DNA of 64,000 nt, from NCBI GenBank assembly GCA_012646185.1, contig GCA_012646185.1_4706.1. One strand, given 5' to 3'. A model generated the notes under the pieces. That model was not told the DNA's origin, made no database searches, and was given only the letters and a program-made list of their open reading frames with translations. The translations under genes were made by a program, and so were the position numbers. Within the stretch, counting starts at the first letter, position 1. The number at the start of each line of letters is the position of its first letter. Source of the DNA: a phage. This document shows positions 12,732 through 63,924 of the stretch, piece by piece.

Positions 12732-15269
12732 TTACTGCTCTTCACGTTCCAGCAGATACTCGGAAGCGGTAATACCGTTTACCGTACGTACTGCTTTCAG
12801 ACGAGTATCATCGCTCAGAATTACAGTAACAGATTGCAGACCTTTTACTTTGGTTTCGAAGGTCTTGAACACCTGATCCAGCATACGAGCAATGCTTGGG
12901 TTGGTTGCAGCAGATGCGTGAGTGTAACCGCTCTGGTTCAGCTTCAGAATCTTGGCGTTGGTCGGTACGCGAACAACAACATGCGGACGCATCGCGAACA
13001 CGCTGTGATTGAACCAGTAAGCATCGTTGCTATCTTCGTCGGTAACGATGTCTGGATTAACACGCATATCCTCGATAGCCGCATCCGCCAAACGACGTTC
13101 GATTTCGTCAGCATCCAGAGAACCATCTTTCTCCAGTTCTGCACGATACTCACTCATGGCAACCAGATGACGTTCACGATTCGCTGCGGATTTTTCGTGA
13201 GCGGCTTTCAGGTAGTCATGCATGTTGTACAGTTCTGCCATGGAAAGACGAATGTTCCACTGACCTTCGCCGTCACGATTGCAGTAGAGACACTTCAGCA
13301 TGTTGACCCAGGTATAGTAGCAATTGGAGAATTCATCTTCAATGAACTTCTGGTCCATTTTAAGATCGTGAATCAGCCAACCGGACAGTTCTCCGATATC
13401 ATCAACGAAGCTAGAGATGGTGGTTTCAGAGAAGTTCTTCGGTACGATACGTTTGATCAGCTTGTTAACGTCTTTGGTCATGCTATCATTCAGGAAATGC
13501 CAGATACGCAGAGGAATGACATCTCGATACTGTTGCATGATCTGACGATAAGCTTTGATATCGTCGCTACGACCTTTATCAATAGACAACGCATCCAGGA
13601 ATTCATGGATTGCATCCAGCTCTTTGTCGGTATAGGTTCCCAGATAGGAATTGACGGTGGCCAGGAATGCTAATGCGTCGTTTTGGTTGACGTCGGTGTT
13701 GGTCTGCTGAATGATCGCTACTGAAGCTTTGGTTTCAGCATCCTCAACGCTTGACGCTGCGATCGCGTCGGTGACGGTAAACAGTTTCATTTCGCGCTGC
13801 TCACCGACAACGATTGGCTCACGCTGAACCGGCTTGTTAAGACTAACACGAACAACTTCTGCTTGCGCGATACGATCCAGTTTTGCCATTTCCTGCTCTG
13901 CCATACGACGAGCGGTTGGATCTGATTCAAGTTCGATGTATTCCACTTCTTCCTCCGTGAGGGATGTAATGTCAACAATGGTTTCATGAAGAATTCCGTT
14001 TTCGTCGATACGTGCTCGACGAGCGAAGTGCCTGAAGTCATACAACGTCGGCCAACGACTATTAGGTGCAAAGTCTTTGGCTTTCAGACGCATCTGCATA
14101 AATTCTTCATGTTGAACAACACGACCGTAACGCTTAGCATCTTCGGTCGCATCAATTGGATTAACGGTCTTTGTTGCCGTAGCGGAACGAGCCGTACGAA
14201 CCGGTTCAGGTTGAACGGGTTTCTGCTGCCCAGCCTTAACATGCCATTCTGGCTCTTCGTACTGCTCAGCAAATTGCTCAGCGGCTGCAAAGATATCGTT
14301 GATACCACCAATATCTCCTTCAGGATTTGTCGAGTAAATCCGTGGTTGTGGTGCCTCGTAACGCGGCGCTGTAGCAGCAGGTGCGTCATCAACGATAGGA
14401 TCGTCATCACCAACATCATACAAACGGTTGAACGCACAATCCTTCGAATCAATGTACGATGGCGTTTGTGGTTGGACAACCGTCGGCCGAGGTTGTGTGC
14501 CGTATCCTGGTGTTGTTGGAGCCATACCACGCATAACTGCTGGGTTAGGTTGGTATTGTGGTTGCGGGTAGGTTCCACCATACATGGCGTACGCAGGCTG
14601 TTGCGGTTGACCATACCCGTTGCTAACCATCGCACTTGCTTGCGGACCACGATAAGTCATCCCCATCTGCATCACCTGCTGCTTCAAACCACGTGACTTC
14701 TGAGCGATTTGCGCTAGGCTTCCGCTTTTATTCAGCTGCGTGTACTTGTTCGCGGCTTCCGGGTTAATGCGTGATAATTCAATCGCGCGATAATATTCCG
14801 GGTACTGATTCGGTTCAAAGAGCCACGTTACAAGATGATACAGCGCAACTGTGCTCACAGCAGCAGAGACGATCTGGTCGTCGGACGCGTTCTGTGGCAT
14901 CGGGTTGATGTAAGAGAACACGTTCCAACAACAGTCTTCAACAAGCGATTCCATCATCATATCGTTATTGGTATAACGTGCGACGAACTCGGTTTGTATT
15001 TTGTCTTGCTGAGCGAAGTCTTTCAGGACATTAAAGATGGCTTGACGGATTTTGACGATCGTCGCTTCTTGGGTGATGAAGTTATAGTTCTGCTGATATG
15101 AGGGTTGTTGGTATTGTGGTGGTTGATAGGCGTTATTCGGGTATGCGCCGTACGGCGATTGCTGATACTGTTGCTGACGAACCCGTTCAGCCGCATAATT
15201 AACCGTGCTCGTATAGGGGTTTTCGCTATAGCCCATTTGTTGATACATGTTGTTACTGCCATTATACAT
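12732..15269 (-). CDS. hypothetical protein (845 aa) with two Q/Y/P-rich low-complexity regions
   Basis: ATG at 15267-15269 with AAAGGA ribosome-binding site; N-terminal ~65 aa and residues ~190-270 are Q/Y/P/G-rich. Confidence 0.85.
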   Translation of the reverse strand: MYNGSNNMYQQMGYSENPYTSTVNYAAERVRQQQYQQSPYGAYPNNAYQPPQYQQPSYQQNYNFITQEATIVKIRQAIFNVLKDFAQQDKIQTEFVARYTNNDMMMESLVEDCCWNVFSYINPMPQNASDDQIVSAAVSTVALYHLVTWLFEPNQYPEYYRAIELSRINPEAANKYTQLNKSGSLAQIAQKSRGLKQQVMQMGMTYRGPQASAMVSNGYGQPQQPAYAMYGGTYPQPQYQPNPAVMRGMAPTTPGYGTQPRPTVVQPQTPSYIDSKDCAFNRLYDVGDDDPIVDDAPAATAPRYEAPQPRIYSTNPEGDIGGINDIFAAAEQFAEQYEEPEWHVKAGQQKPVQPEPVRTARSATATKTVNPIDATEDAKRYGRVVQHEEFMQMRLKAKDFAPNSRWPTLYDFRHFARRARIDENGILHETIVDITSLTEEEVEYIELESDPTARRMAEQEMAKLDRIAQAEVVRVSLNKPVQREPIVVGEQREMKLFTVTDAIAASSVEDAETKASVAIIQQTNTDVNQNDALAFLATVNSYLGTYTDKELDAIHEFLDALSIDKGRSDDIKAYRQIMQQYRDVIPLRIWHFLNDSMTKDVNKLIKRIVPKNFSETTISSFVDDIGELSGWLIHDLKMDQKFIEDEFSNCYYTWVNMLKCLYCNRDGEGQWNIRLSMAELYNMHDYLKAAHEKSAANRERHLVAMSEYRAELEKDGSLDADEIERRLADAAIEDMRVNPDIVTDEDSNDAYWFNHSVFAMRPHVVVRVPTNAKILKLNQSGYTHASAATNPSIARMLDQVFKTFETKVKGLQSVTVILSDDTRLKAVRTVNGITASEYLLEREEQ

Positions 15270-15303: not shown

Positions 15304-17100
15304 TCAATCGATTATGTCGTGATCGTTAATTTCTACAATTTCTTCATCGAATCGACCGACGTCTTTCTTCAAGCCTGCATTGGTTGCTGCAACGTCATTT
15401 GCAATTTGTGGGGTAATGATTAACCGACCGCGCTCATCGATAGGTGCGTACATACTGAACTTCTGACGTCCGGTTGGTTCGGAGTGTGGAAGATTCAGAT
15501 AGCTTGCACAGAACGGGATGGAACCACTAACCAAACGACTCTCGTCAGCCAATGCAGCACCGCCTGCGTTTTGGCTCTGGAGAACAACATGCGTGCTCAC
15601 TTTGAACAGCATGCAATCACCAGGTGACTGAATCGATGTTGCCACTTTCTCACGTTTATCACGATTGCTCTGGATATTGAGAATCGCTTCCGTTGCAACT
15701 TGATTTCGCAACGCCTTCTGTACATCGCGATTGGTCATCTCTTTACGGTTGTTCTGTCGTTTACCACGTTCTGTGGTTTTAAGATGGAACCCCAGTTTAA
15801 AGATGCTCTTACGCACATCCTCCATGACATATTCCAACACCATCAATTCCTTACCGAACATCGTCGTGGTGTCAACACGACTCATTTCGATAGTGACATT
15901 GTCAATCAGATACGCCATAAATTCATAGAAGTCGTCGCAAGGAATATTTTCCTGTTTGAACTTCTTCTGCTGAATTTCGTCAACGTAAAGATCGAGACTG
16001 TCGATGTGGTGGTTTACATCACGCAACAAACGCGCATCCGCATTGTTGTTATTAAAGATAATCAAACCGAGTAATGTACGCCAATGGTCTGGCGCATTCG
16101 CGAACTCTTCAACCGGATAGTCTTCCGGAAAACGATCGTAATAACGGTCGATGAGATACAAGAATGCACCGACAAGGCCAAGAACAATACGTTCCGTGCC
16201 TCCACGTCTTACAGCAATTTGAATATCAGGATGTTTGTAACGTACAGCGCTAGCGCTACGGCTTTTACCGCTTTTGCTGATACTAAAGCCTTTAGGAATA
16301 ACCCCCATGGTGCGATAGATTACCCATTGGTCACGCGGAAAATCACGTTCAGCAAGGTTCCGTCCGGTTACGGCTTCGACACCTGCAAAACGTCGGAAAC
16401 ACTCACCCACCCCGTACTTCGCAAAGAGATAGTGACCCAGTGTGGTTACGCTGGTGTGGTTGATGTTGTCACCGTTCACTTTACTTTGTTTAGTAAGATG
16501 ATAGATTTGCGACCAGGGTAATGACAGGTAATGACGATAATCGATACCGGTCGGTGTATCGTTGCTCAGGAACTGATACGGTGTACGTTTAACCGTGATT
16601 TTGTCACGCGGAAGCATGATGAACGCCATGTCTTTCGTGTAACTGATTACGGGGTCAGCGAGTACCGCACTGAGAATGAAGTTCGCACCACGTAGACGCA
16701 TTTTACCACCCTGACCTACCGCGGGTAATAGGAGAGGATGTCGGATAATGCAGTAGTCCTTTCCGGGTTCACGACGGTCACCTGATTCCATCGCGCCGTA
16801 CCAGCGGAATTCTAGCATCACCATAAACACATCGGAAGGCGCAAGGTCGAAGGTCAGCTTACCGCTATCCTTCCCTTTGGTTTTCTTTCCTCCGCTTAAG
16901 TAGTGGAACTGTTCGCGGGCCATACAGCGACGCAGGCCATGATACACCAGATCCTTAGGTAAACTATCTTTGCTGTTCCGCCAAAGACGATCAACATAGG
17001 ACTCAACATCTTGCATCTTATCGACGACGATGTTGCGTGCTATCTTCTCGTTCATCTTCGGTGCAAGCTCAGCGACAGCTTTGCAGAATCTAGGATCCAT
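15304..17100 (-). CDS. hypothetical protein (~598 aa), start moved to ATG at 17098-17100
   Basis: Track start GTG at 17103; adjacent ATG has AAAGGAG ribosome-binding site 6 nt upstream. Confidence 0.8.
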   Translation of the reverse strand: MDPRFCKAVAELAPKMNEKIARNIVVDKMQDVESYVDRLWRNSKDSLPKDLVYHGLRRCMAREQFHYLSGGKKTKGKDSGKLTFDLAPSDVFMVMLEFRWYGAMESGDRREPGKDYCIIRHPLLLPAVGQGGKMRLRGANFILSAVLADPVISYTKDMAFIMLPRDKITVKRTPYQFLSNDTPTGIDYRHYLSLPWSQIYHLTKQSKVNGDNINHTSVTTLGHYLFAKYGVGECFRRFAGVEAVTGRNLAERDFPRDQWVIYRTMGVIPKGFSISKSGKSRSASAVRYKHPDIQIAVRRGGTERIVLGLVGAFLYLIDRYYDRFPEDYPVEEFANAPDHWRTLLGLIIFNNNNADARLLRDVNHHIDSLDLYVDEIQQKKFKQENIPCDDFYEFMAYLIDNVTIEMSRVDTTTMFGKELMVLEYVMEDVRKSIFKLGFHLKTTERGKRQNNRKEMTNRDVQKALRNQVATEAILNIQSNRDKREKVATSIQSPGDCMLFKVSTHVVLQSQNAGGAALADESRLVSGSIPFCASYLNLPHSEPTGRQKFSMYAPIDERGRLIITPQIANDVAATNAGLKKDVGRFDEEIVEINDHDIID

Positions 17101-17139
17101 CACACACTCCTTTCAGAAAGTTGCTTAAGCAGATTAAAG

Positions 17140-18576
17140 TTACTTTTTCGATGACGCCTTTTCAAGAATCTTGAAAAAGGTCATACCTATACCGACAACG
17201 GCCGCGGTTATGCTCGCAGCGGCTTTCCAAACATCGACGTTACGTTGACGTCGCGCTTCTTCCGCTTCACGTTGTCTTTTTGCCTCTTCATCACGTCGAC
17301 GTATCTCAGCAGCAAACTCGTCGTGCTTACGTTTGGCTTCTTCGTCTCGACGACGAAGTTCAGCGACGAATTCTTCATGTTTGCGTTTAGCCTCGTCATC
17401 ACGACGTTTTAAATCAGCTTGATAATCTTCGTGTATTTGTTTACGTAGATCATCTTGACGCTTCATTTCGGCTTGGTGTTGTTCCATCCTACGTTTTTGT
17501 TCGTCTTTAAGCTGATCGAGTTCGGCTTTATGTTGTTCATCGCGCAGCTTTGCGTCGGCGCGATGCGCCTCATGCATCTGTGCGATAACTGCCTTGTGTT
17601 CATCCGCCATACGCCGCATTTCAGCCATCACCCCTTTAAGGGTTTCTTCTGATGCCTTACGTTCGTAGCTACGCTGGTCGAAATCATTTTTGTAGGCTTC
17701 TTTTTGGATGGGGTCGCGCCAATGCAATGCCGATTCACGTGTCGGAAAAACATTGTACTTCCACATCTCTTTTTCCAAATCTTCGACCGGTACGAAGATG
17801 GAGTCATTATTCCCGAAGGTAACCAACATACCTGGCGCGCCTGCTCCATTCGTTGGTTTTATTTCGAACGCTTTCCCCAGCACGTTAACCCATAAGCTAT
17901 ACGGATTATGAAAGTCGGGTGGCGTCCAATGGATAGTGAGTTGCGTTCCGAGAATCCGGAAACCCTCTGTTTTTCCCGTCAAGCTCCGCGCGCACGTTGC
18001 GATGTAGGGGTGATCAATCCCTTTCGTAACGTGGTCTGCGCTTTTGTATTCTCCTTTAACTTTTACGATTGCCACGTTGATTTGCGCGACATAAGCAGGT
18101 TGATTAAAGTTCAGCGTGTTGAGGTCAATTTGACATATTTCATCCAGCGTATCGTACCAGTCTTGCTGGTCTAATAGACGCGGCATTTTCTCAGCGTTAA
18201 CAATACGACGGATATGCGGTTTCCTTATCGCGTAACCTGTGCCGTTTTTAACACGGAGTATATCCCGACGTCTACCCGCGTAGACGAAGTTTCTGAATGC
18301 ACCATTCGCATTAGATACGTCATGGCTGTCAACTATTACAGGACTACGAAATTTTGAACGTCGTACGATCCTGAATGTATTGCCGTCCTCAACCCTACCA
18401 GGAATGTACTGGAACATATTGTCGGAGGTGATAACCAACACGGTATGGCCAGATTCATTAATACATGCCCATCCTAATTCCAGGTCATATAACGGTTCAG
18501 CATAACCGTCAATGCGATAAGCGTGCGTACCATCCCACGGTTCGAACGCGGTATCACATATTGGCATGGAGGGCAT
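17140..18576 (-). CDS. hypothetical protein (~478 aa): globular N-domain, E/R/K-rich repeat helix, C-terminal transmembrane anchor
   Basis: Start moved to ATG at 18574-18576 (GGAGG, 6-nt spacer); three 19-aa repeats LRRRDEEAKRKHEEFVAE; hydrophobic AAASITAAVVGIGMTFF followed by KILEKASSKK at the C-terminus. Confidence 0.8.
   Translation of the reverse strand: MPSMPICDTAFEPWDGTHAYRIDGYAEPLYDLELGWACINESGHTVLVITSDNMFQYIPGRVEDGNTFRIVRRSKFRSPVIVDSHDVSNANGAFRNFVYAGRRRDILRVKNGTGYAIRKPHIRRIVNAEKMPRLLDQQDWYDTLDEICQIDLNTLNFNQPAYVAQINVAIVKVKGEYKSADHVTKGIDHPYIATCARSLTGKTEGFRILGTQLTIHWTPPDFHNPYSLWVNVLGKAFEIKPTNGAGAPGMLVTFGNNDSIFVPVEDLEKEMWKYNVFPTRESALHWRDPIQKEAYKNDFDQRSYERKASEETLKGVMAEMRRMADEHKAVIAQMHEAHRADAKLRDEQHKAELDQLKDEQKRRMEQHQAEMKRQDDLRKQIHEDYQADLKRRDDEAKRKHEEFVAELRRRDEEAKRKHDEFAAEIRRRDEEAKRQREAEEARRQRNVDVWKAAASITAAVVGIGMTFFKILEKASSKK
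17255..17425 (-). repeat. tandem ~57-bp in-frame repeats encoding the E/R/K-rich helix
   Basis: Repeated cgacg...gcgac...ttcttc...tttgcgttt units visible on the plus strand; bounds approximate. Confidence 0.5.
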
Positions 18577-18726
18577 CGTCAACCTCCATCTGATTGAAAA
18601 CTATCACGCATAATGCATTTCCCTTTTCTTGTTCTTATCGAGCCGACAGCCGACGGTTTCAGCATCGTTCCTAGCGCGAGAACGACCTTACGTGTTGTCT
18701 ATGCCTTATTCATCGCAGGCGTCTGT

Positions 18727-18746
18727 CACCTAGGTAATGTAAGCGT
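18727..18746 (-). promoter_or_regulatory. conserved motif CACCTAGGTAATGTA (plus strand), candidate promoter element
   Basis: Same core as elements at 25205-25267 and 63861-63924; lies after a terminator and ~150 nt upstream of the 18576 start. Confidence 0.3.
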
Positions 18747-18784
18747 CAAATTTTTTCTATTCGCAACAATAAACGGCATAGAAA

Positions 18785-18814
18785 CCTCCCCCAACCCTTA
18801 CGGGCTGAGGGAGG
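18785..18814 (-). terminator. terminator hairpin downstream of major capsid gene
   Basis: CCTCCC...CCC-TTAC-GGG...GGGAGG; U-rich run follows on minus-strand RNA (plus 18750-18765). Confidence 0.65.
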
Positions 18815-18913: not shown

Positions 18914-21136
18914 TCAGTTAGTCTGAACCGGCAGCTTGATGTTTTCAGTGTAGACCTTACGCAGGTTCACAACGTTAATCAGACCCAGCAGCGGGCAGTT
19001 GTTAACGAAGCGGCAGCGCGGCTGAACCATGGTTTCTTTAGAAACCTGACCGTTACGGGTAACCTGAGCAACAGATACCAGTTCCGGTACATACAGGAAC
19101 ATACCGAAGGTCAGCGGATCCGGAGAACCCTGGATACCACGAGACAGGGTCACGAAGATCTTATCGCGCAGCATGACGTTCGGGTTATCTACAACCACGA
19201 AGTTGAAGCTTACACCAACGGTACGGAAATCGCCATCGGTCTGCAGGAACTGCGGGATGTAGTTGTCAGTTGCTACTACGCAACGCGGTTTCTCATCAGC
19301 GTTGGAAGACAGCAGCTGCAGAGCTGGCTGATAACCAGACTCGGAGTACATGCGGTATGCCATCTCACGAATCACGTTCATGATCGCAGCAGACACTTCA
19401 GCACGACGTTCTGCAGTGGTGGTACCCTGAACAGATTTCTCCAGGTCCAGATTGATTTCTTCGAACCACGGACGGATCAGGTAACGACCGAAACCTTCGA
19501 TCTGGATGTCGCCGAACTGACGGAAGCGAGAGGTCGCAACCGCTTTCAGTGCGTCTTTGTAGCTGAACAGTTTCTCAACCATCAGGTTGTCGAAACGTGC
19601 GTTAGCAGCTTGGATCAGAACGTCCAGGTCAGCAGCGTTTTCTTCCCAATCCAGCGGACGAGGAATGGAGAACGGAGCCAGCAGGCCGATTGCGTAACGT
19701 TCTTGCTTCATGTTGAAGTCAAGGTGCTTACCGCGCTCACGACGGTTGCTGTTGTTACGGCGGATACGCAGTTCGTAACCAACCAGTTTGAAGCTCAGGT
19801 CTTCAGCCAGCTGTTTGAACTCTTCGCCCTTACGCGGTTGTTCGATGTTGTCACGATCGACCAGACGATACAGTTCAGCGTTAGCGCCGTTAACACGCAG
19901 ACCGGCTTTCTCTACGTTGGAAGAACCGTAAACTTCGATTGCCAGCTGAGCAGCGGATTTCGAATCGATGATGTCCTGCAGCGCTTCAGCTCGTGCACCT
20001 TTAACGTCAACGGTGTTCTCATCAACGAAGATGGAGTGGGTGTCGAACGCCAGGGTCATTTTGCGGAAGTCGCCTTCCAGGGATTTCTGGAAACCGTTGG
20101 TGATCAGACCAGATACGTCGAACGGTACGTAAGAGGTTTTGCTGTGCTTGGTAGATTTGATTTCCACCAGGATTTTGGTCAGCGTGATCTGGGCGTCCAG
20201 CGCGTCGGTGTTGTCGCTGTAACCGTTAGCCAGGATGCTATCGTCTTCAGCGATACCGATCATGTCGATCAGTTTATCAACAGCCAGGTAAGACGTTTTA
20301 TAAGTTACGCCTTTAATTTCGATGTCGCGCGGAGCAACGATAGCTTTGTCAACGAAGTACTGTGCGTTAGCATCGTCAGCACGATAGATCGGATGCAGAT
20401 CGGTCACGTCGTTGGACAGAACGTCGTTGTACATGAACGCATCCAGCAGCGGACGACGTACCCAATCAGCCGGAGTACCGTCAGCGTTACGACGCAGGTG
20501 GTTGAACACCAGCGGACGACGGAAAGATACGTCGTAACCGATCTGGTTCGGAGCCAGAACGATGGTGTTGTACAGTTCGTTACCCATGCGGCTCAGACGA
20601 GAAGCCTTCACGTTGAACACAACGGAGTACGGCATCATGTCACGCAGTTCTTTCTGGTCGTAGGACAGCTGAACCAGTTCTTCAGATTCGCAACCGCAGG
20701 AATCAGCAGCCATCATGACGAAGTTAGAGCTGTCAACTTCACGGCCAGACGGAGTGGTGCTGATGTTCATGGAACGTGCTTGTTTAGCATATTCCACCGG
20801 GTTACCATGAGCCAGCATGATCAGTGCTGCTGCACGAGCCTGCTGTGCGTTCATGGTGAACAGCTGTTCTTCAATACGCTGCTTCTCTTCCGGAGTGGTG
20901 GTTTCGAAGCCCAGCATGGACAGAACCGGTTCTTCGGCTTTACGGATGTCGCTGCTGAAGCTCTTAACATCCATTTCGTTAACCAGTTTGTCCATGGATT
21001 TGAAATCAACCTTAGAAGCAGATTCCATAGACAGGAAGGTGTTCTCCAGACCTTTGTCTGCTGGTTTGCTACCATTAGCGGTCAGGAACTGGCGAGTGGC
21101 CGCGACCTGTTGGCTAAGAAGGGTTTTATCATTCAT
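18914..21136 (-). CDS. putative major capsid protein (740 aa)
   Basis: ATG at 21134-21136 with AAAGGA ribosome-binding site; length close to the ~750-aa capsid proteins of phiKZ-like phages (recollection, not verified); strong host-like codon bias; own terminator. Confidence 0.55.
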   Translation of the reverse strand: MNDKTLLSQQVAATRQFLTANGSKPADKGLENTFLSMESASKVDFKSMDKLVNEMDVKSFSSDIRKAEEPVLSMLGFETTTPEEKQRIEEQLFTMNAQQARAAALIMLAHGNPVEYAKQARSMNISTTPSGREVDSSNFVMMAADSCGCESEELVQLSYDQKELRDMMPYSVVFNVKASRLSRMGNELYNTIVLAPNQIGYDVSFRRPLVFNHLRRNADGTPADWVRRPLLDAFMYNDVLSNDVTDLHPIYRADDANAQYFVDKAIVAPRDIEIKGVTYKTSYLAVDKLIDMIGIAEDDSILANGYSDNTDALDAQITLTKILVEIKSTKHSKTSYVPFDVSGLITNGFQKSLEGDFRKMTLAFDTHSIFVDENTVDVKGARAEALQDIIDSKSAAQLAIEVYGSSNVEKAGLRVNGANAELYRLVDRDNIEQPRKGEEFKQLAEDLSFKLVGYELRIRRNNSNRRERGKHLDFNMKQERYAIGLLAPFSIPRPLDWEENAADLDVLIQAANARFDNLMVEKLFSYKDALKAVATSRFRQFGDIQIEGFGRYLIRPWFEEINLDLEKSVQGTTTAERRAEVSAAIMNVIREMAYRMYSESGYQPALQLLSSNADEKPRCVVATDNYIPQFLQTDGDFRTVGVSFNFVVVDNPNVMLRDKIFVTLSRGIQGSPDPLTFGMFLYVPELVSVAQVTRNGQVSKETMVQPRCRFVNNCPLLGLINVVNLRKVYTENIKLPVQTN

Positions 21137-25204: not shown

Positions 25205-25267
25205 TTATCACCTAGGTAATGTAGTCGCGAAATAAACTGGAGTAATGCGAAATAAGACAGCATAGAA
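25205..25267 (-). promoter_or_regulatory. conserved ~60-nt element, candidate phage promoter
   Basis: About 85% identical to 63861-63924; plus strand reads CACCTAGGTAATGTAGTCGCGAAATAAACTG...CGAAATAAGACAGCATAGAA. Confidence 0.35.
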
Positions 25268-47531: not shown

Positions 47532-50500
47532 TTATCTTACGTTATTGCTGTTCTGCTGTTCGCTGAACCAACCGTACACCTTGAGATCGGTACCGTATTT
47601 CAATGCGATATACGCATTCAGTGCGGCACAGAACAAAGACGCGAATGCCCATATCAGCGAAGGATCAACATCTTCCGTTACCACCGGGAGAGTATTATCC
47701 GGTTCCCATGATGGAGAACTGTCCATGAACGTCGTGACCATTACTCGCCGTTGTTCTTCGGTGGTAAAGTCGCTATGAGGTTCCAACGCTTCTTTTGCCA
47801 GACGTCGATATTCGAACATATGCGTTGCTAAAGCCGATGAGTTACCAGATTCGCCTTCATAGTTCGGATCCACCGCATAACAGAGTTCTGTTGAATCTAA
47901 CAAAGCAACCGCCTGTGTGATGCTGTCGGCAGTGCCTGCACCATAGAGTTCGATAGACCGCGAAAGCTTCTCACAGAACGCATCCAACGCGGCAGGATTG
48001 GACACCTGAAGGTCAAGGCCTAATGTCCACGGATAGTTACTGAATACACCCGTAAACCGCGGCATAACACCCAACAGATGTTGTCCGATTACAGCACGGT
48101 TATAAACAGCCCGGTTATAGACTTGAAACGCAGCCTCCAAAGCTTGGTTATAATGACGACGAAGTTCGTCACGAGAGTTGCGGAACCTGTTTGCCGCAAG
48201 ACTCGTGGCTGCGACGCTACAAACATCGTAATTGGTGGACGAGAGCACAGTTTCGTTAAGATCGAACGCTTCCTGTTTCAACGATCCGCTAACCGCTGCT
48301 GCTTCGCTGTTTGCTTTATCGACAACAGTACTCAAAGCGTTGATGTAACGTTTAGCTCGGACTTCCAGCCATTGTGCGATGCCGAGAACATCCACAGCGG
48401 CTTTAGCAAGGTCACGCGCGTTCACGATTTCGTTCTTCAAGGCACCCAACCCTTTATTCTCAGGCGAAGAGGCTTGTTGACGAATCATGCTGTTTAACAT
48501 GGTAAGCAGATTATCCAACTCGTGCCCACTGACCTTGTTACGCGCATCGGTAATCGGCCCTTGCAGGAATTTACGGCAACCATCGTTGTATCGAATCAGT
48601 TTATCCACATCGATAGATTCGTTCGTGGATTCCTTGAACTGATCCTTCAATTCTTCACGGTAGTCATGGATTTCACTTGCGAGATTATCGATAGTGATAC
48701 CATCATGTCCAAGAAGAACTTTATTGAAGTTACCTTTCTCGAATGCCAGAGCAAGACCTTCACGAATCTTAGCGAGTTTATCCTGATCAAGTTCACGACC
48801 GTTCGATAGCTCTTTCACTTCCGAGCTGATTAATGCCGAAACGTTACCCAGATTGTCGGTAACCCCTTTGAACGCTCCCGACCAGATCGTTCCTGCTTCA
48901 GCGTATTTCGCAATGGTCTGAATACCGACGGTGTGCAGCGACGCTAAACGTTTCTTCGTGCCTTCGGTAAGCAGAGCGTCTTTAGCTCGCGTAAGCTGGC
49001 TGTTATTAGCTTCCGCCTGCTGAATCGCTGCTTTCGCACTTCCATTACGCCAGCTCTTAACCAGCCAATCAACCAAACGTTTTAGGATGTTGACGGTATA
49101 TTCCATCGTCCGCCGTAACGTTTCCCACGCGCTTTCTGCGGTATAGATGCCGTACCCTTCCATCTTCAACGCTTTCAAGCTTGTTTGACGTGCCAGCCAT
49201 TCTACCGTTGCGGAACAAACGTTTACAAAGGCTTCCAGGTAGGTGTAATAGACGTCTGTTGCCGACGTTTCGTTGAACTTTGAATGCAGATAGAACTGAT
49301 CGTAAAGTTCGTCGTCATCGCCGAAGGCATCATAGTTCCACAGTTCTGTATCACAACCTGTACCGCAGAAGACGTCAGCTGTCGTAAACTCTTTAAGCGC
49401 TTTAGCTGCATCATTCGTCAGGAATTTACCCGTTTCGACTACATCGTCGACATTAAGCTTGGGGAGTTCGTCGGTGACTGGCTCTTCCAACATCAGCATA
49501 TTGAAGAATGTGCTGTACTTGTATCCGAGCCATTTTGGATAACTGCTTTCAGGGATCGTAGACAACGGCTTGATTTTCTTGGCTTCAGCCAATGTGTCTT
49601 TTGCGACCTGATATTGGTTTTCCCCAGCCTTGACGCGACGTAATGCTTTTTCTTCCAACTGCTTAAGCTTGGCATGGCGTGCTTGTGCTGGAGCTTCAAC
49701 AAGTTTTTGTACTGACCGCATTGCAGAAATCGCTTCTTTTAATACGATCATCGGCATACGAACTTTGCCGTCGTCGAAACTAAGAGCGCGAGCGACACGT
49801 TTACTTACGACAGGCTTATCATGGATATTTCGTTCCACCCATGATTTGTTTGCGTAAGTTTGAGCGATCTGCTGTTGGATATTTTCAAGGTATTTCCAGC
49901 CGTTGGAAGCTTTGTTATCCAGAAGCGGATTCGGTCCCTTCTTATCGAAAAGTTTCAGAATCGGACCAAAGAAACCTTCCTGTACGAGTTCGATACGCGT
50001 GTATCCGTCAGCCGCTTCGATTTCTTCTTGGGTTTTGTCCCAGAGCTGTTCACTACGGACAGCAGTAGCTGTTTCAGATACCGACATAACAAGCTCGGCA
50101 ACAACTTCAGCACAGGTCAGTACGGTACGCACGCATTGCACTAGCATACGCTGGTAAACGATACGTGCGTTTTGTAGACGTGCGATAACCGCTAAATAAC
50201 CGATATTGTCAAGACGTTCGTCGGCTTGAGCAGAGTCGACACGTTCTATCAGTTGTTTAACCAGCGCGGCTGTTTCCGGATAATCGTTCACGACGTCACG
50301 CATAATTCGTGATGCGAAAACCGCGGTACCTAAAACGTTAAGAAGTGTTTTACCGTCCCATTCTTTTGGTGTCGCTACCGATTCGGTAGGGATGAGATTT
50401 CCCGCTTGATCGAAGTATGGCATAAGGACATTGATATCCGTAGACGGTACTGCGGTGATTGCGTTGTACTCTTCATCCGCACCATCGTTGCCAGACGGCT

Positions 50501-63860: not shown

Positions 63861-63924
63861 TTATCACTAAGGTAATGTAGTCGTGAAATAAACTGCGTTA
63901 ACACGAAATAAAAACAGCATAGAA
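63861..63924 (-). promoter_or_regulatory. conserved ~60-nt element, candidate phage promoter
   Basis: About 85% identical to 25205-25267; about 70 nt upstream of the 63796 start. Confidence 0.35.

Follow-up and report, generated by a model that had tools for sequence, protein, structure and literature searches.

The Chimalliviridae core protein cg35 of a Goslar-like phage: a predicted tail anchor, a long charged helix, and a candidate role as a membrane tether

We analyzed a 64,000-nucleotide stretch of phage DNA (contig GCA_012646185.1_4706.1 of GenBank assembly GCA_012646185.1, here called the window) and focused on a gene on its minus strand at positions 17140 to 18576. Its 478-amino-acid (aa) product is the Goslar-clade version of the Chimalliviridae core protein cg35, which is represented by gp122 in phiKZ, gp138 in PhiPA3, and gp202 in 201phi2-1. 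The best-supported description is a structural one, in which an early, non-virion, tail-anchored protein would hold a conserved head about 20 nm from lipid on a stiff charged helix. Our preferred reading is that this protein is anchored by its C terminus at the cytoplasmic face of a lipid membrane and tethers that membrane to the phage nucleus via ChmA or ChmB; we regard the chances that this reading is right as evenly balanced. The case is built on the architecture of the protein, its conservation and synteny, its absence from virions, and the promoter-like box and terminator that precede its gene, to which published work on orthologues adds importance during infection and proximity to ChmA and ChmB. 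From this evidence we infer membrane insertion, topology, early timing, helix rigidity, and the identity of the partner.

The open reading frame (ORF) runs from an ATG at 18576, the start codon also annotated for Goslar in GenBank, to a TAA stop codon at 17140 to 17142, as read from the ORF list and the sequence. A Shine-Dalgarno sequence, GGAGG (18583 to 18587, minus strand), is read directly 6 nt 5′ of the ATG. By tblastn, all 478 residues align with Goslar_00040 (gp40, HOV27_gp040) of Escherichia phage vB_EcoM_Goslar at 99.4% identity. The upstream ORF (18914 to 21136, minus strand) matches the Pfam major capsid protein (MCP) family PhiKZ_MCP with an E value of 4.5e-216, and the downstream ORF (15304 to 17103, minus strand) matches a jumbo-phage RNA polymerase PHROG. 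Given these capsid and RNA polymerase neighbors and the match to Goslar_00040, the window comes from a Goslar-like nucleus-forming (Chimalliviridae) Escherichia coli phage. In Goslar, the cg35 gene forms a tight array with gp39, an early-class gene for a subunit of the non-virion RNA polymerase (nvRNAP). Neither the gene nor the family is new: both are already catalogued, and the core-genome table equates cg35 with Goslar gp040, phiKZ gp122, and RAY gp001 under the label "hypothetical" (supplement of PMC10299810). What appears undescribed in the literature searched is the combination of a tail anchor with an ER/K rod, the conservation of this architecture in the family, its whole-turn length polymorphism, and the early-promoter context.

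Architecture of the cg35 protein

The initial annotation, made from the letters of the window, had outlined an N-terminal domain, a charged repeat helix, and a C-terminal hydrophobic helix ending in KILEKASSKK, and had likened the whole to a membrane-anchored spacer or tether. The outline is real and is kept across the family: a head, a long charged helix, and a C-terminal hydrophobic segment with a 10-residue tail. Residues 452 to 468 (AAASITAAVVGIGMTFF; 17173 to 17223, minus strand), preceded by a conserved W-K, are the sole strongly hydrophobic stretch of the protein, and every next-best window on the Kyte-Doolittle and Hessa scales overlaps with it. The 19-residue Kyte-Doolittle maximum is 1.76, at residues 453 to 471 (classical cutoff, 1.6). 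The segment comprises 17 uncharged residues with a mean Eisenberg hydrophobicity of 0.69 and a low hydrophobic moment (0.19), and helix is predicted to residue 475. A single hydrophobic segment, only 10 residues after it, no signal sequence, and no second transmembrane (TM) segment are what is expected of a tail-anchored protein; the N terminus, MPSMPICDTAFEPWDG, is not signal-like. Insertion of residues 452 to 468 into a membrane is therefore predicted from sequence features, and the short basic tail KILEKASSKK (residues 469 to 478; 17143 to 17172, minus strand) would face the periplasm or the vesicle lumen, provided that the anchor spans the bilayer.

The charged region, residues 291 to 448 (17233 to 17706, minus strand), is a continuous E/R/K-rich alpha-helix as judged from AlphaFold2, composition, salt-bridge count, and periodicity. 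Two AlphaFold2 runs were made, both with shallow alignments (6 to 10 sequences). The full-length model contains a single unbroken helix from residue 289 to residue 475, with predicted local distance difference test (pLDDT) scores of 75 to 89 over residues ~320 to 430. Between residues 301 and 448, 54% of positions are D, E, K, or R (17% R, 17% E, 10% K, and 10% D) and the net charge is 0; alanine is also abundant, and L, I, V, M, F, W, and Y together account for only 16%. Opposite-charge pairs at i/i+4 spacing number 39, compared to 21.2 ± 3.6 in shuffled sequences (z of about 5). Fully helical, the ~160 residues would measure roughly 22 to 24 nm.

By these sequence measures, low hydrophobicity, zero net charge, and the i/i+4 excess amount to the signature of ER/K single alpha-helices (SAHs), such as the lever extensions of myosin VI and myosin X and the helix of caldesmon. 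The cg35 helix shares with SAH domains a high and balanced E/R/K content, a net charge of 0, the excess of i/i+4 pairs, few hydrophobic residues, and prediction as one helix. It differs from them in two respects. The hydrophobic residues of positions 349 to 438 recur with a periodicity of 3.6 residues (resultant, 0.73) and not 3.5 (0.23), and they form a regular, straight aromatic/aliphatic stripe on an unsupercoiled helix, made up of positions 1 (F/Y/H) and 5 (L/M/I) of each 18-residue repeat. Residues 311 to 348 show heptad-like hydrophobic spacing (resultant, 0.77). Taken together, the stripe and the heptad-like stretch make weak self-association or dimerization of the helix possible.

Five in-register 18-aa (54-nt) repeats occupy residues 349 to 438 (17263 to 17532, minus strand; HKAELDQLKDEQKRRMEQ, HQAEMKRQDDLRKQIHED, YQADLKRRDDEAKRKHEE, FVAELRRRDEEAKRKHDE, and FAAEIRRRDEEAKRQREA). 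The initial annotation had placed three 19-aa copies, encoded by ~57-bp repeats, behind a domain of ~300 aa. The order of domain and repeat helix stands, with a head of ~290 aa and a helix of ~160 aa, but both the period and the count needed correction: identity at a lag of 18 residues is 0.36, while the maximum over all lags in 5,000 shuffles was 0.23 (P < 1/5,000), and the three copies originally seen are the last three of the five. Those three are the most alike, with 50 to 67% identity in protein and 61 to 67% in DNA. A search for DNA repeats recovered one pair at 54-nt spacing, and Tandem Repeats Finder reported no repeat between positions 17000 and 18700 because the 54-nt copies have diverged to this extent.

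The head (residues 1 to 290; 17707 to 18576, minus strand) has an ordinary composition up to residue ~290 and is predicted to be mostly beta. It ends in the motif VFPTRESA (residues 276 to 283), whose family form, [YF]x[VL]F-x-[TS]-x-E-[AS], marks the junction of head and helix. No Pfam or NCBIfam family matched the head. Searches of the PDB yielded a best E value of 0.054 (a COMM domain) by sequence profile and of 0.45 by Foldseek; both were counted as negative, and neither identified a relative of solved structure. A fold search of BFVD returned 26 matches with E values of ≤0.001, all of them uncharacterized phage proteins and every named one from a jumbo phage, including 201phi2-1 gp202, RP12 ORF093, and Eowyn gp144. 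Weak matches to the Pfam families FUSC and CD99L2 and to PADLOC PDC-S06 are confined to the charged helix or the TM segment and were set aside as compositional.

Family conservation and transcriptional context

An exhaustive HMMER profile search of 1.84 billion representative proteins retrieved only three close lineages: the Goslar-like proteins, a 413-aa metagenomic lineage (P0015 and P0016), and a 406-aa protein (P0017). This search and whole-database searches with profiles of the N-terminal domain together gave only one protein more, an Eowyn-like one. All three lineages have the head, the charged helix, and the C-terminal hydrophobic tail, and at the P0015/P0016 and P0017 loci the gene lies between a PhiKZ_MCP gene and a ~600-aa gene that fills the slot of Goslar gp39. 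Between the Goslar-like proteins and the 413-aa lineage, conservation is highest in the last repeat and the juxtamembrane segment (residues 421 to 448, FAAEIRRRDEEAKRQREAEEARRQRNVD; 17233 to 17316, minus strand), where 21 of 28 residues (75%) are identical in P0015, compared to only 30% in the N-terminal domain; this stretch is not conserved in P0017.

More distant relatives were found by position. A weak tblastn match in Salmonella phage SPLA10 fell directly downstream of the capsid gene, and on the strength of that location the same slot was inspected in other phages. Between the MCP and nvRNAP subunit genes, a protein of 334 to 483 aa is encoded in phiKZ, 201phi2-1, PhiPA3, Xoo-sp14, SPLA10, Asesino, RP12, Eowyn, and a Vibrio phage, and each of these proteins has a charged helix and a hydrophobic C terminus. 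The gene order MCP, cg35, nvRNAP subunit is found in the window, Goslar, the two metagenomic lineages, phiKZ, SPLA10, Xoo-sp14, 201phi2-1, Asesino, RP12, Yong MS31, Eowyn, and PhiPA3; PCH45 is the sole examined locus with a locally different order. The gap between cg35 and the nvRNAP beta-subunit gene (phiKZ gp123, Goslar gp39) is ~10 to 40 nt.

Orthologues outside the Goslar clade are only 12 to 18% identical to the Goslar-clade protein, and profile comparisons connect them. Alignment of the Goslar-clade profile to that of seven other orthologues by hhalign covered residues 28 to 284 (224 columns) with a probability of 95.2% and an E value of 2.5e-8. The 478-aa protein matches phrog_7727 (E value, 2.4e-5), and the Xoo-sp14 and SPLA10 orthologues bridge PHROGs 7727, 7286, and 15024, the last being that of phiKZ gp122. 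PhiPA3 gp122, SPN3US gp122, and PCH45 gp202 carry the same numbers as family members and are unrelated proteins.

Architecture was compared among 11 divergent family members. An equivalent low-moment uncharged run of 13 to 20 residues ends within 10 residues of the C terminus in 8 of the 11, followed by basic tails of 0 to 10 residues; in SPLA10, a 19-residue run lies 41 residues from the C-terminal end. The tail is clearly TM-like in the Goslar clade and degenerate in phiKZ and 201phi2-1. The Goslar clade also has by far the longest helix, ~160 residues compared to ~60 to 100 in other cg35 orthologues, and this length was built by expansion of the 18-aa repeat. Conservation of the architecture across the family is strong indirect support for its being functional.

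Length also varies within the Goslar-like proteins, which come in forms of 460, 478, 489, and 507 aa with a nearly invariant head and tail. The variants, recovered from Salmonella and E. coli sequencing data (P0003, 507 aa; P0005, 489 aa; P0004 and P0006 to P0011, 460 aa), differ by indels within the helix of exactly 18 residues (one repeat, or 5.0 helical turns) and 11 residues (3.06 turns). Because these are whole turns, they fit a rigid rod whose length may vary while helical phase is kept. A scan of IMG/VR yielded three loci, all encoding 478-aa proteins, and thus no length variation.

The gene is set off from the capsid gene by a terminator and has a promoter-like element of its own. The MCP gene is followed by a 15-bp GC-rich hairpin (18785 to 18814) and then TTTCTATGCCG; this element (18774 to 18814, minus strand) has an RNA fold of −30 kcal/mol (z = −5.3) and, read as a terminator, is predicted to separate the capsid transcript from that of the gp40 operon. 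Some 45 nt downstream of it and ~150 nt 5′ of the ATG lies an early-promoter-like box, TTACATTACCTAGGTGA (18726 to 18742, minus strand), preceded by AAAAAATTTGACG (an A/T-rich tract). The candidate promoter element noticed at first inspection is thus real, and the same box stands upstream of chmA. Three copies of the box occur in the window, compared to 0.15 expected, at 18726 to 18742, 25208 to 25224, and 63864 to 63880, all on the minus strand and intergenic. The second of these falls inside an annotated 62-aa ORF, Goslar_00047 (Goslar positions 49584 to 49772); possible explanations are that this ORF is misannotated or that the box drives Goslar_00046, the downstream gene, alone.

The Goslar genome (MK327938.1) has 12 copies, compared to ~2.6 expected, all on the minus strand and each just upstream of a gene (positions 2567, 15067, 43266, 49732, 86705, 113797, 142800, 151634, 166069, 172978, 187639, and 201944); chmA (Goslar_00189) is one of these genes, and another encodes an RNA polymerase subunit. 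The consensus is CTA[TC]ATTACCT[AT]GGTGA after a T/A-rich tract, and its core, CTATATTAC, is shared upstream of cg35 in phiKZ, PhiPA3, Eowyn, and others. CTA[TC]ATTAC itself occurs between the MCP and cg35 genes of eight others: phiKZ, PhiPA3, Eowyn, SPLA10, Asesino, RP12, and both metagenomic lineages. The early (virion RNA polymerase) promoter motif of phiKZ consists of a T-rich part and an extended −10-like box (PMC7598289), and phiKZ chmA carries an early promoter motif (PMC8244752). The box is probably the early promoter of the family. A terminator after the MCP gene, combined with a box that is shared with chmA and kept across the family, suggests that gp40 is the first gene of an early operon that continues into gp39 and gp38, and early expression of gp40 is accordingly predicted from promoter context. 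A sigma-70 scan upstream of the gene revealed no host-type promoter, and none is expected, since the phage uses its own polymerases.

The hairpin recurs as well. The GC-rich hairpin followed by (T)TTTATGCCG(T) forms a module with at least 10 copies on the Goslar minus strand (positions 225526, 202846, 180584, 176536, 166925, 132982, 117667, 87250, 63711, and 43305). It follows the capsid gene in PhiPA3, Xoo-sp14, RP12, and Eowyn and takes the form TTTATGTTG in phiKZ and 201phi2-1. Within the module is TATG, which forms the core of the late promoter in phiKZ, for which the determinants of late specificity are said to be unknown (PMC7598289). The module could unite a terminator and a late promoter in one element.

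Candidate roles during infection

Published data place cg35 outside the virion. HOV27_gp040 (YP_009820725) is not among the proteins listed for Goslar virions by liquid chromatography-tandem mass spectrometry, a listing that reaches ~0.1 copy per virion and includes the neighbor gp039 at ~0.14 copies, and on this evidence the reading as a virion protein was rejected. In 201phi2-1, gp202 likewise lacks the virion-protein note that its neighbors gp198 and gp200 carry. Functional data come from phiKZ. An antisense screen described gp122 as "core genome, uncharacterized" and scored a weak (+) drop in plaques and ChmA upon its knockdown, which was also among those with a strong effect on phage transcription at 30 min (PMC12571901). 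Transposon sequencing recovered zero insertions in PHIKZ120 to PHIKZ124 and many in PHIKZ125 (supplement of PMC12676376). ChmA miniTurboID and both the ChmA-green fluorescent protein (GFP) and GFP-ChmB pulldowns detected PhiPA3 gp138 (YP_009217217.1), which was identified via its accession and whose annotation notes similarity to phiKZ gp122; the authors called its role unknown (PMC10643120). In Goslar, the vesicle of early phage infection (EPI vesicle) stays attached to the nucleus and rotates with it, and >95% of ChmA shells adjoin a vesicle; how the two compartments bind and how DNA is transferred were stated to be unknown (PMC10541120).

We propose the following course of events. The gene would be transcribed from an early promoter of the virion RNA polymerase type in one operon with the nvRNAP subunit gene gp39. 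The protein would be completed in the cytoplasm and anchored by its C terminus, with the N-terminal head of ~290 aa held ~20 nm from the bilayer. There the head would bind a phage structure, for which the nascent ChmA shell or ChmB is the preferred partner, and cg35 would keep the EPI vesicle attached to the phage nucleus as a membrane-to-nucleus tether. A ChmA/ChmB surface is favored on account of the early promoter shared with chmA, the proximity data from PhiPA3, the effects on ChmA and transcription when gp122 is knocked down in phiKZ, and the unexplained attachment in Goslar. A more specific version of this proposal, in which cg35 is the missing connector, anchored in the vesicle, with a rigid ER/K helix of ~20 nm and a head that binds or nucleates the ChmA lattice, is a good deal more tentative; it is inferred only, from functional links that are circumstantial.

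If true, the connector would explain the assembly of shells beside the vesicle, the lasting attachment of the vesicle to a nucleus with which it rotates, and how the genome can change compartments while shielded from the cytoplasm. Among phage-encoded tethers between a membrane and a protein organelle, cg35 would then be the first, and whole-turn variation of 18 and 11 residues in the helix would adjust the distance from one compartment to the other. In nucleus-forming phages, the genome moves out of a lipid vesicle and into a nucleus with a protein shell, and cg35 is a concrete candidate for that link or for membrane-sited capsid assembly: it is encoded in every family member, has an early-type promoter, is absent from virions, and is built of an anchor, a spacer, and a head. 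The natural variants of 460, 478, 489, and 507 aa provide a ready-made length series for the spacer. Should cg35 be merely an accessory protein parked at a membrane, the gain would be a modest one in the annotation of a core gene.

Several observations weigh against a membrane-to-nucleus tether. At 17 residues, the hydrophobic run is short; much of it is Ala, Gly, Ser, and Thr, and its Hessa sum is marginal, from +1.1 (15-mer) to +2.8 (19-mer) kcal/mol; the related lineages do better than the Goslar-like proteins on this measure (−0.3 for P0015 and −1.7 for P0017). The tails of phiKZ and 201phi2-1 are degenerate, their uncharged runs measuring 6 and 9 residues and their Hessa sums +5.3 and +4.0. 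Since the tail is degenerate in phages for which there are functional data, the anchor may not be the conserved function, or it may bind protein and not lipid. AlphaFold2 confidence in the head is low (mean pLDDT of 58 at full length and 50 for residues 1 to 316), and with a fold model at a pLDDT of ~50 no binding surface can be argued. By itself, a tail anchor would not distinguish the EPI vesicle from the inner membrane, which is much larger. The evidence from PhiPA3 is slight: a single peptide in the ChmA-GFP pulldown and a miniTurboID signal that was low (PMC10643120). In phiKZ, the essential nvRNAP gene gp123 starts 10 nt downstream of gp122, and the transposon paper warns of polar artifacts in RNA polymerase operons (PMC12676376), so that both the antisense and the transposon phenotypes may be polar on gp123. 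The literature searched contained no localization data for any cg35 orthologue and none on its post-translational membrane insertion. A preprint on the phiKZ EPI vesicle and a 2025 field review mention no transmembrane, tail-anchored, or tethering phage protein; in the review, the words "transmembrane," "tail-anchored," and "tether" are absent.

The main rival, which we consider unlikely, is that cg35 is a membrane-bound initiator or scaffold of procapsid assembly, with a head that would nucleate or hold the portal and capsid initiation complex at the inner membrane and be left behind when the capsid departs. There is a model for such a role in T4 gp40, which acts with the gp20 portal at the membrane in prohead initiation and, like cg35, is a non-virion, membrane-associated protein (predicted to be so in the case of cg35) from a head-gene neighborhood that could localize capsid initiation. 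The gene lies downstream of the MCP gene in the chimalliviruses examined, its product is absent from mature virions, and the TATG element just after the MCP terminator matches the phiKZ late promoter core and could add late transcription. In Pseudomonas chimalliviruses, the membrane is the site of capsid assembly (PMC10299810), and the GFP-ChmB pulldown in which the PhiPA3 orthologue was found is dominated by capsid proteins (PMC10643120). However, a strong terminator stands between the MCP gene and cg35, which is headed by a chmA-type box and arrayed tightly with an early-class nvRNAP subunit gene; early promoter context and a transcription unit separate from that of the MCP gene also distinguish cg35 from T4 gp40, and Pfam, PHROG, and PDB searches found neither T4 gp40 nor any scaffold family to be similar. 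The lower ChmA and altered 30-min transcription seen upon gp122 knockdown would be unexpected for a pure capsid factor, although polarity on gp123 could explain them.

Two further roles are less likely. It is doubtful that cg35 is an accessory of the nvRNAP or of nuclear import, in which case the hydrophobic helix would be a protein-protein or shell-embedding element (for example, in the ChmA lattice) and the head would handle nvRNAP subunits or cargo. Such a role would fit the invariant adjacency to the nvRNAP beta-subunit gene and the degenerate phiKZ and 201phi2-1 tails, which argue that lipid insertion is not essential to the family. It would also fit the naming of gp122 beside ChmA, nvRNAP subunits, and PicA among the strong transcription knockdowns (PMC12571901) and the detection of the PhiPA3 orthologue near ChmA (PMC10643120). 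Yet 10 of the 11 members compared (9 by uncharged run length) have a low-moment, TM-like, lysine-flanked C-terminal segment of the kind typical of lipid anchors, it is not obvious what a polymerase cofactor would do with a rigid spacer of ~20 nm, and the transcription phenotype may be polar. Moreover, the phiKZ nvRNAP purified by Yakunina et al. in 2015 reportedly consisted of gp55, gp68, gp71-73, gp74, and gp123, without gp122. Least probable by a wide measure is a late membrane function apart from the nucleus, as a lysis regulator, holin-like factor, or superinfection exclusion protein at the inner membrane. Many phage membrane proteins belong to the lysis or exclusion classes, and cg35 would resemble them in its single predicted C-terminal membrane segment, large cytoplasmic domain, and absence from the virion. 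On the other hand, it is a family-wide core gene with a fitness phenotype, whereas exclusion genes are usually accessory; its promoter context is of the early type; and it has no holin-like topology, Pfam match, or match to a functionally annotated PHROG. The phiKZ holin and lysis regulator are reported as gp142 and gp143, beside the endolysin gp144 (PMC12676376), and with the holin assigned to gp142 we ruled out a holin reading.

The tail-anchored tether that we prefer has likenesses in other systems. Golgin-type tethers such as giantin, golgin-84, and CASP combine a C-terminal single-pass anchor and a very short luminal tail with a long helical rod and a distal N-terminal capture domain that extends tens of nanometers out from the bilayer. 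The cg35 protein follows the same design logic, with no sequence or detectable fold relationship to them; golgins are dimeric heptad coiled coils of hundreds of nanometers, whereas the cg35 rod is ~20 nm long, is only 16% hydrophobic, and resembles a salt-bridged ER/K helix, with a periodicity of 3.6 residues. To our knowledge, the GET/TRC40 insertion machinery is absent from bacteria. Among host proteins, E. coli ElaB, YqjD, and YgaM (DUF883) set a precedent: they are tail-anchored, are inserted post-translationally, and combine a cytoplasmic region that is helical with an N-terminal part that has a function. These C-tail-anchored inner-membrane proteins of ~100 aa bind ribosomes and belong to stationary phase. 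The cg35 protein differs from these in having no Pfam DUF883 match and in its 290-aa head, which is without known relatives.

Neighboring genes

Downstream of the RNA polymerase gene, the window encodes an unannotated 845-aa protein (12732 to 15269, minus strand) that is the orthologue of Goslar gp38 and the positional equivalent of phiKZ gp124. It is the putative third gene of the gp40-gp39-gp38 operon. Knockdown of phiKZ gp124 also had strong effects on phage transcription (PMC12571901).

On the other side of cg35, the phiKZ-like Pseudomonas phages differ from the Goslar-like phages in having one more small gene, which separates cg35 from the MCP gene: phiKZ gp121 (locus L007, 6952 to 7404), 201phi2-1 gp201 (L010, 4905 to 5423), and PhiPA3 gp137 (L015, 5288 to 5821). 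An extra small gene is also present in Asesino (gp92; L011, 4342 to 5151) and at locus L013 (4277 to 4636). As with its neighbors, phiKZ gp121 had zero transposon insertions (supplement of PMC12676376). In the Pseudomonas phages, the small gene overlaps the start of cg35 by ~30 to 45 nt; Goslar-like phages are without it.

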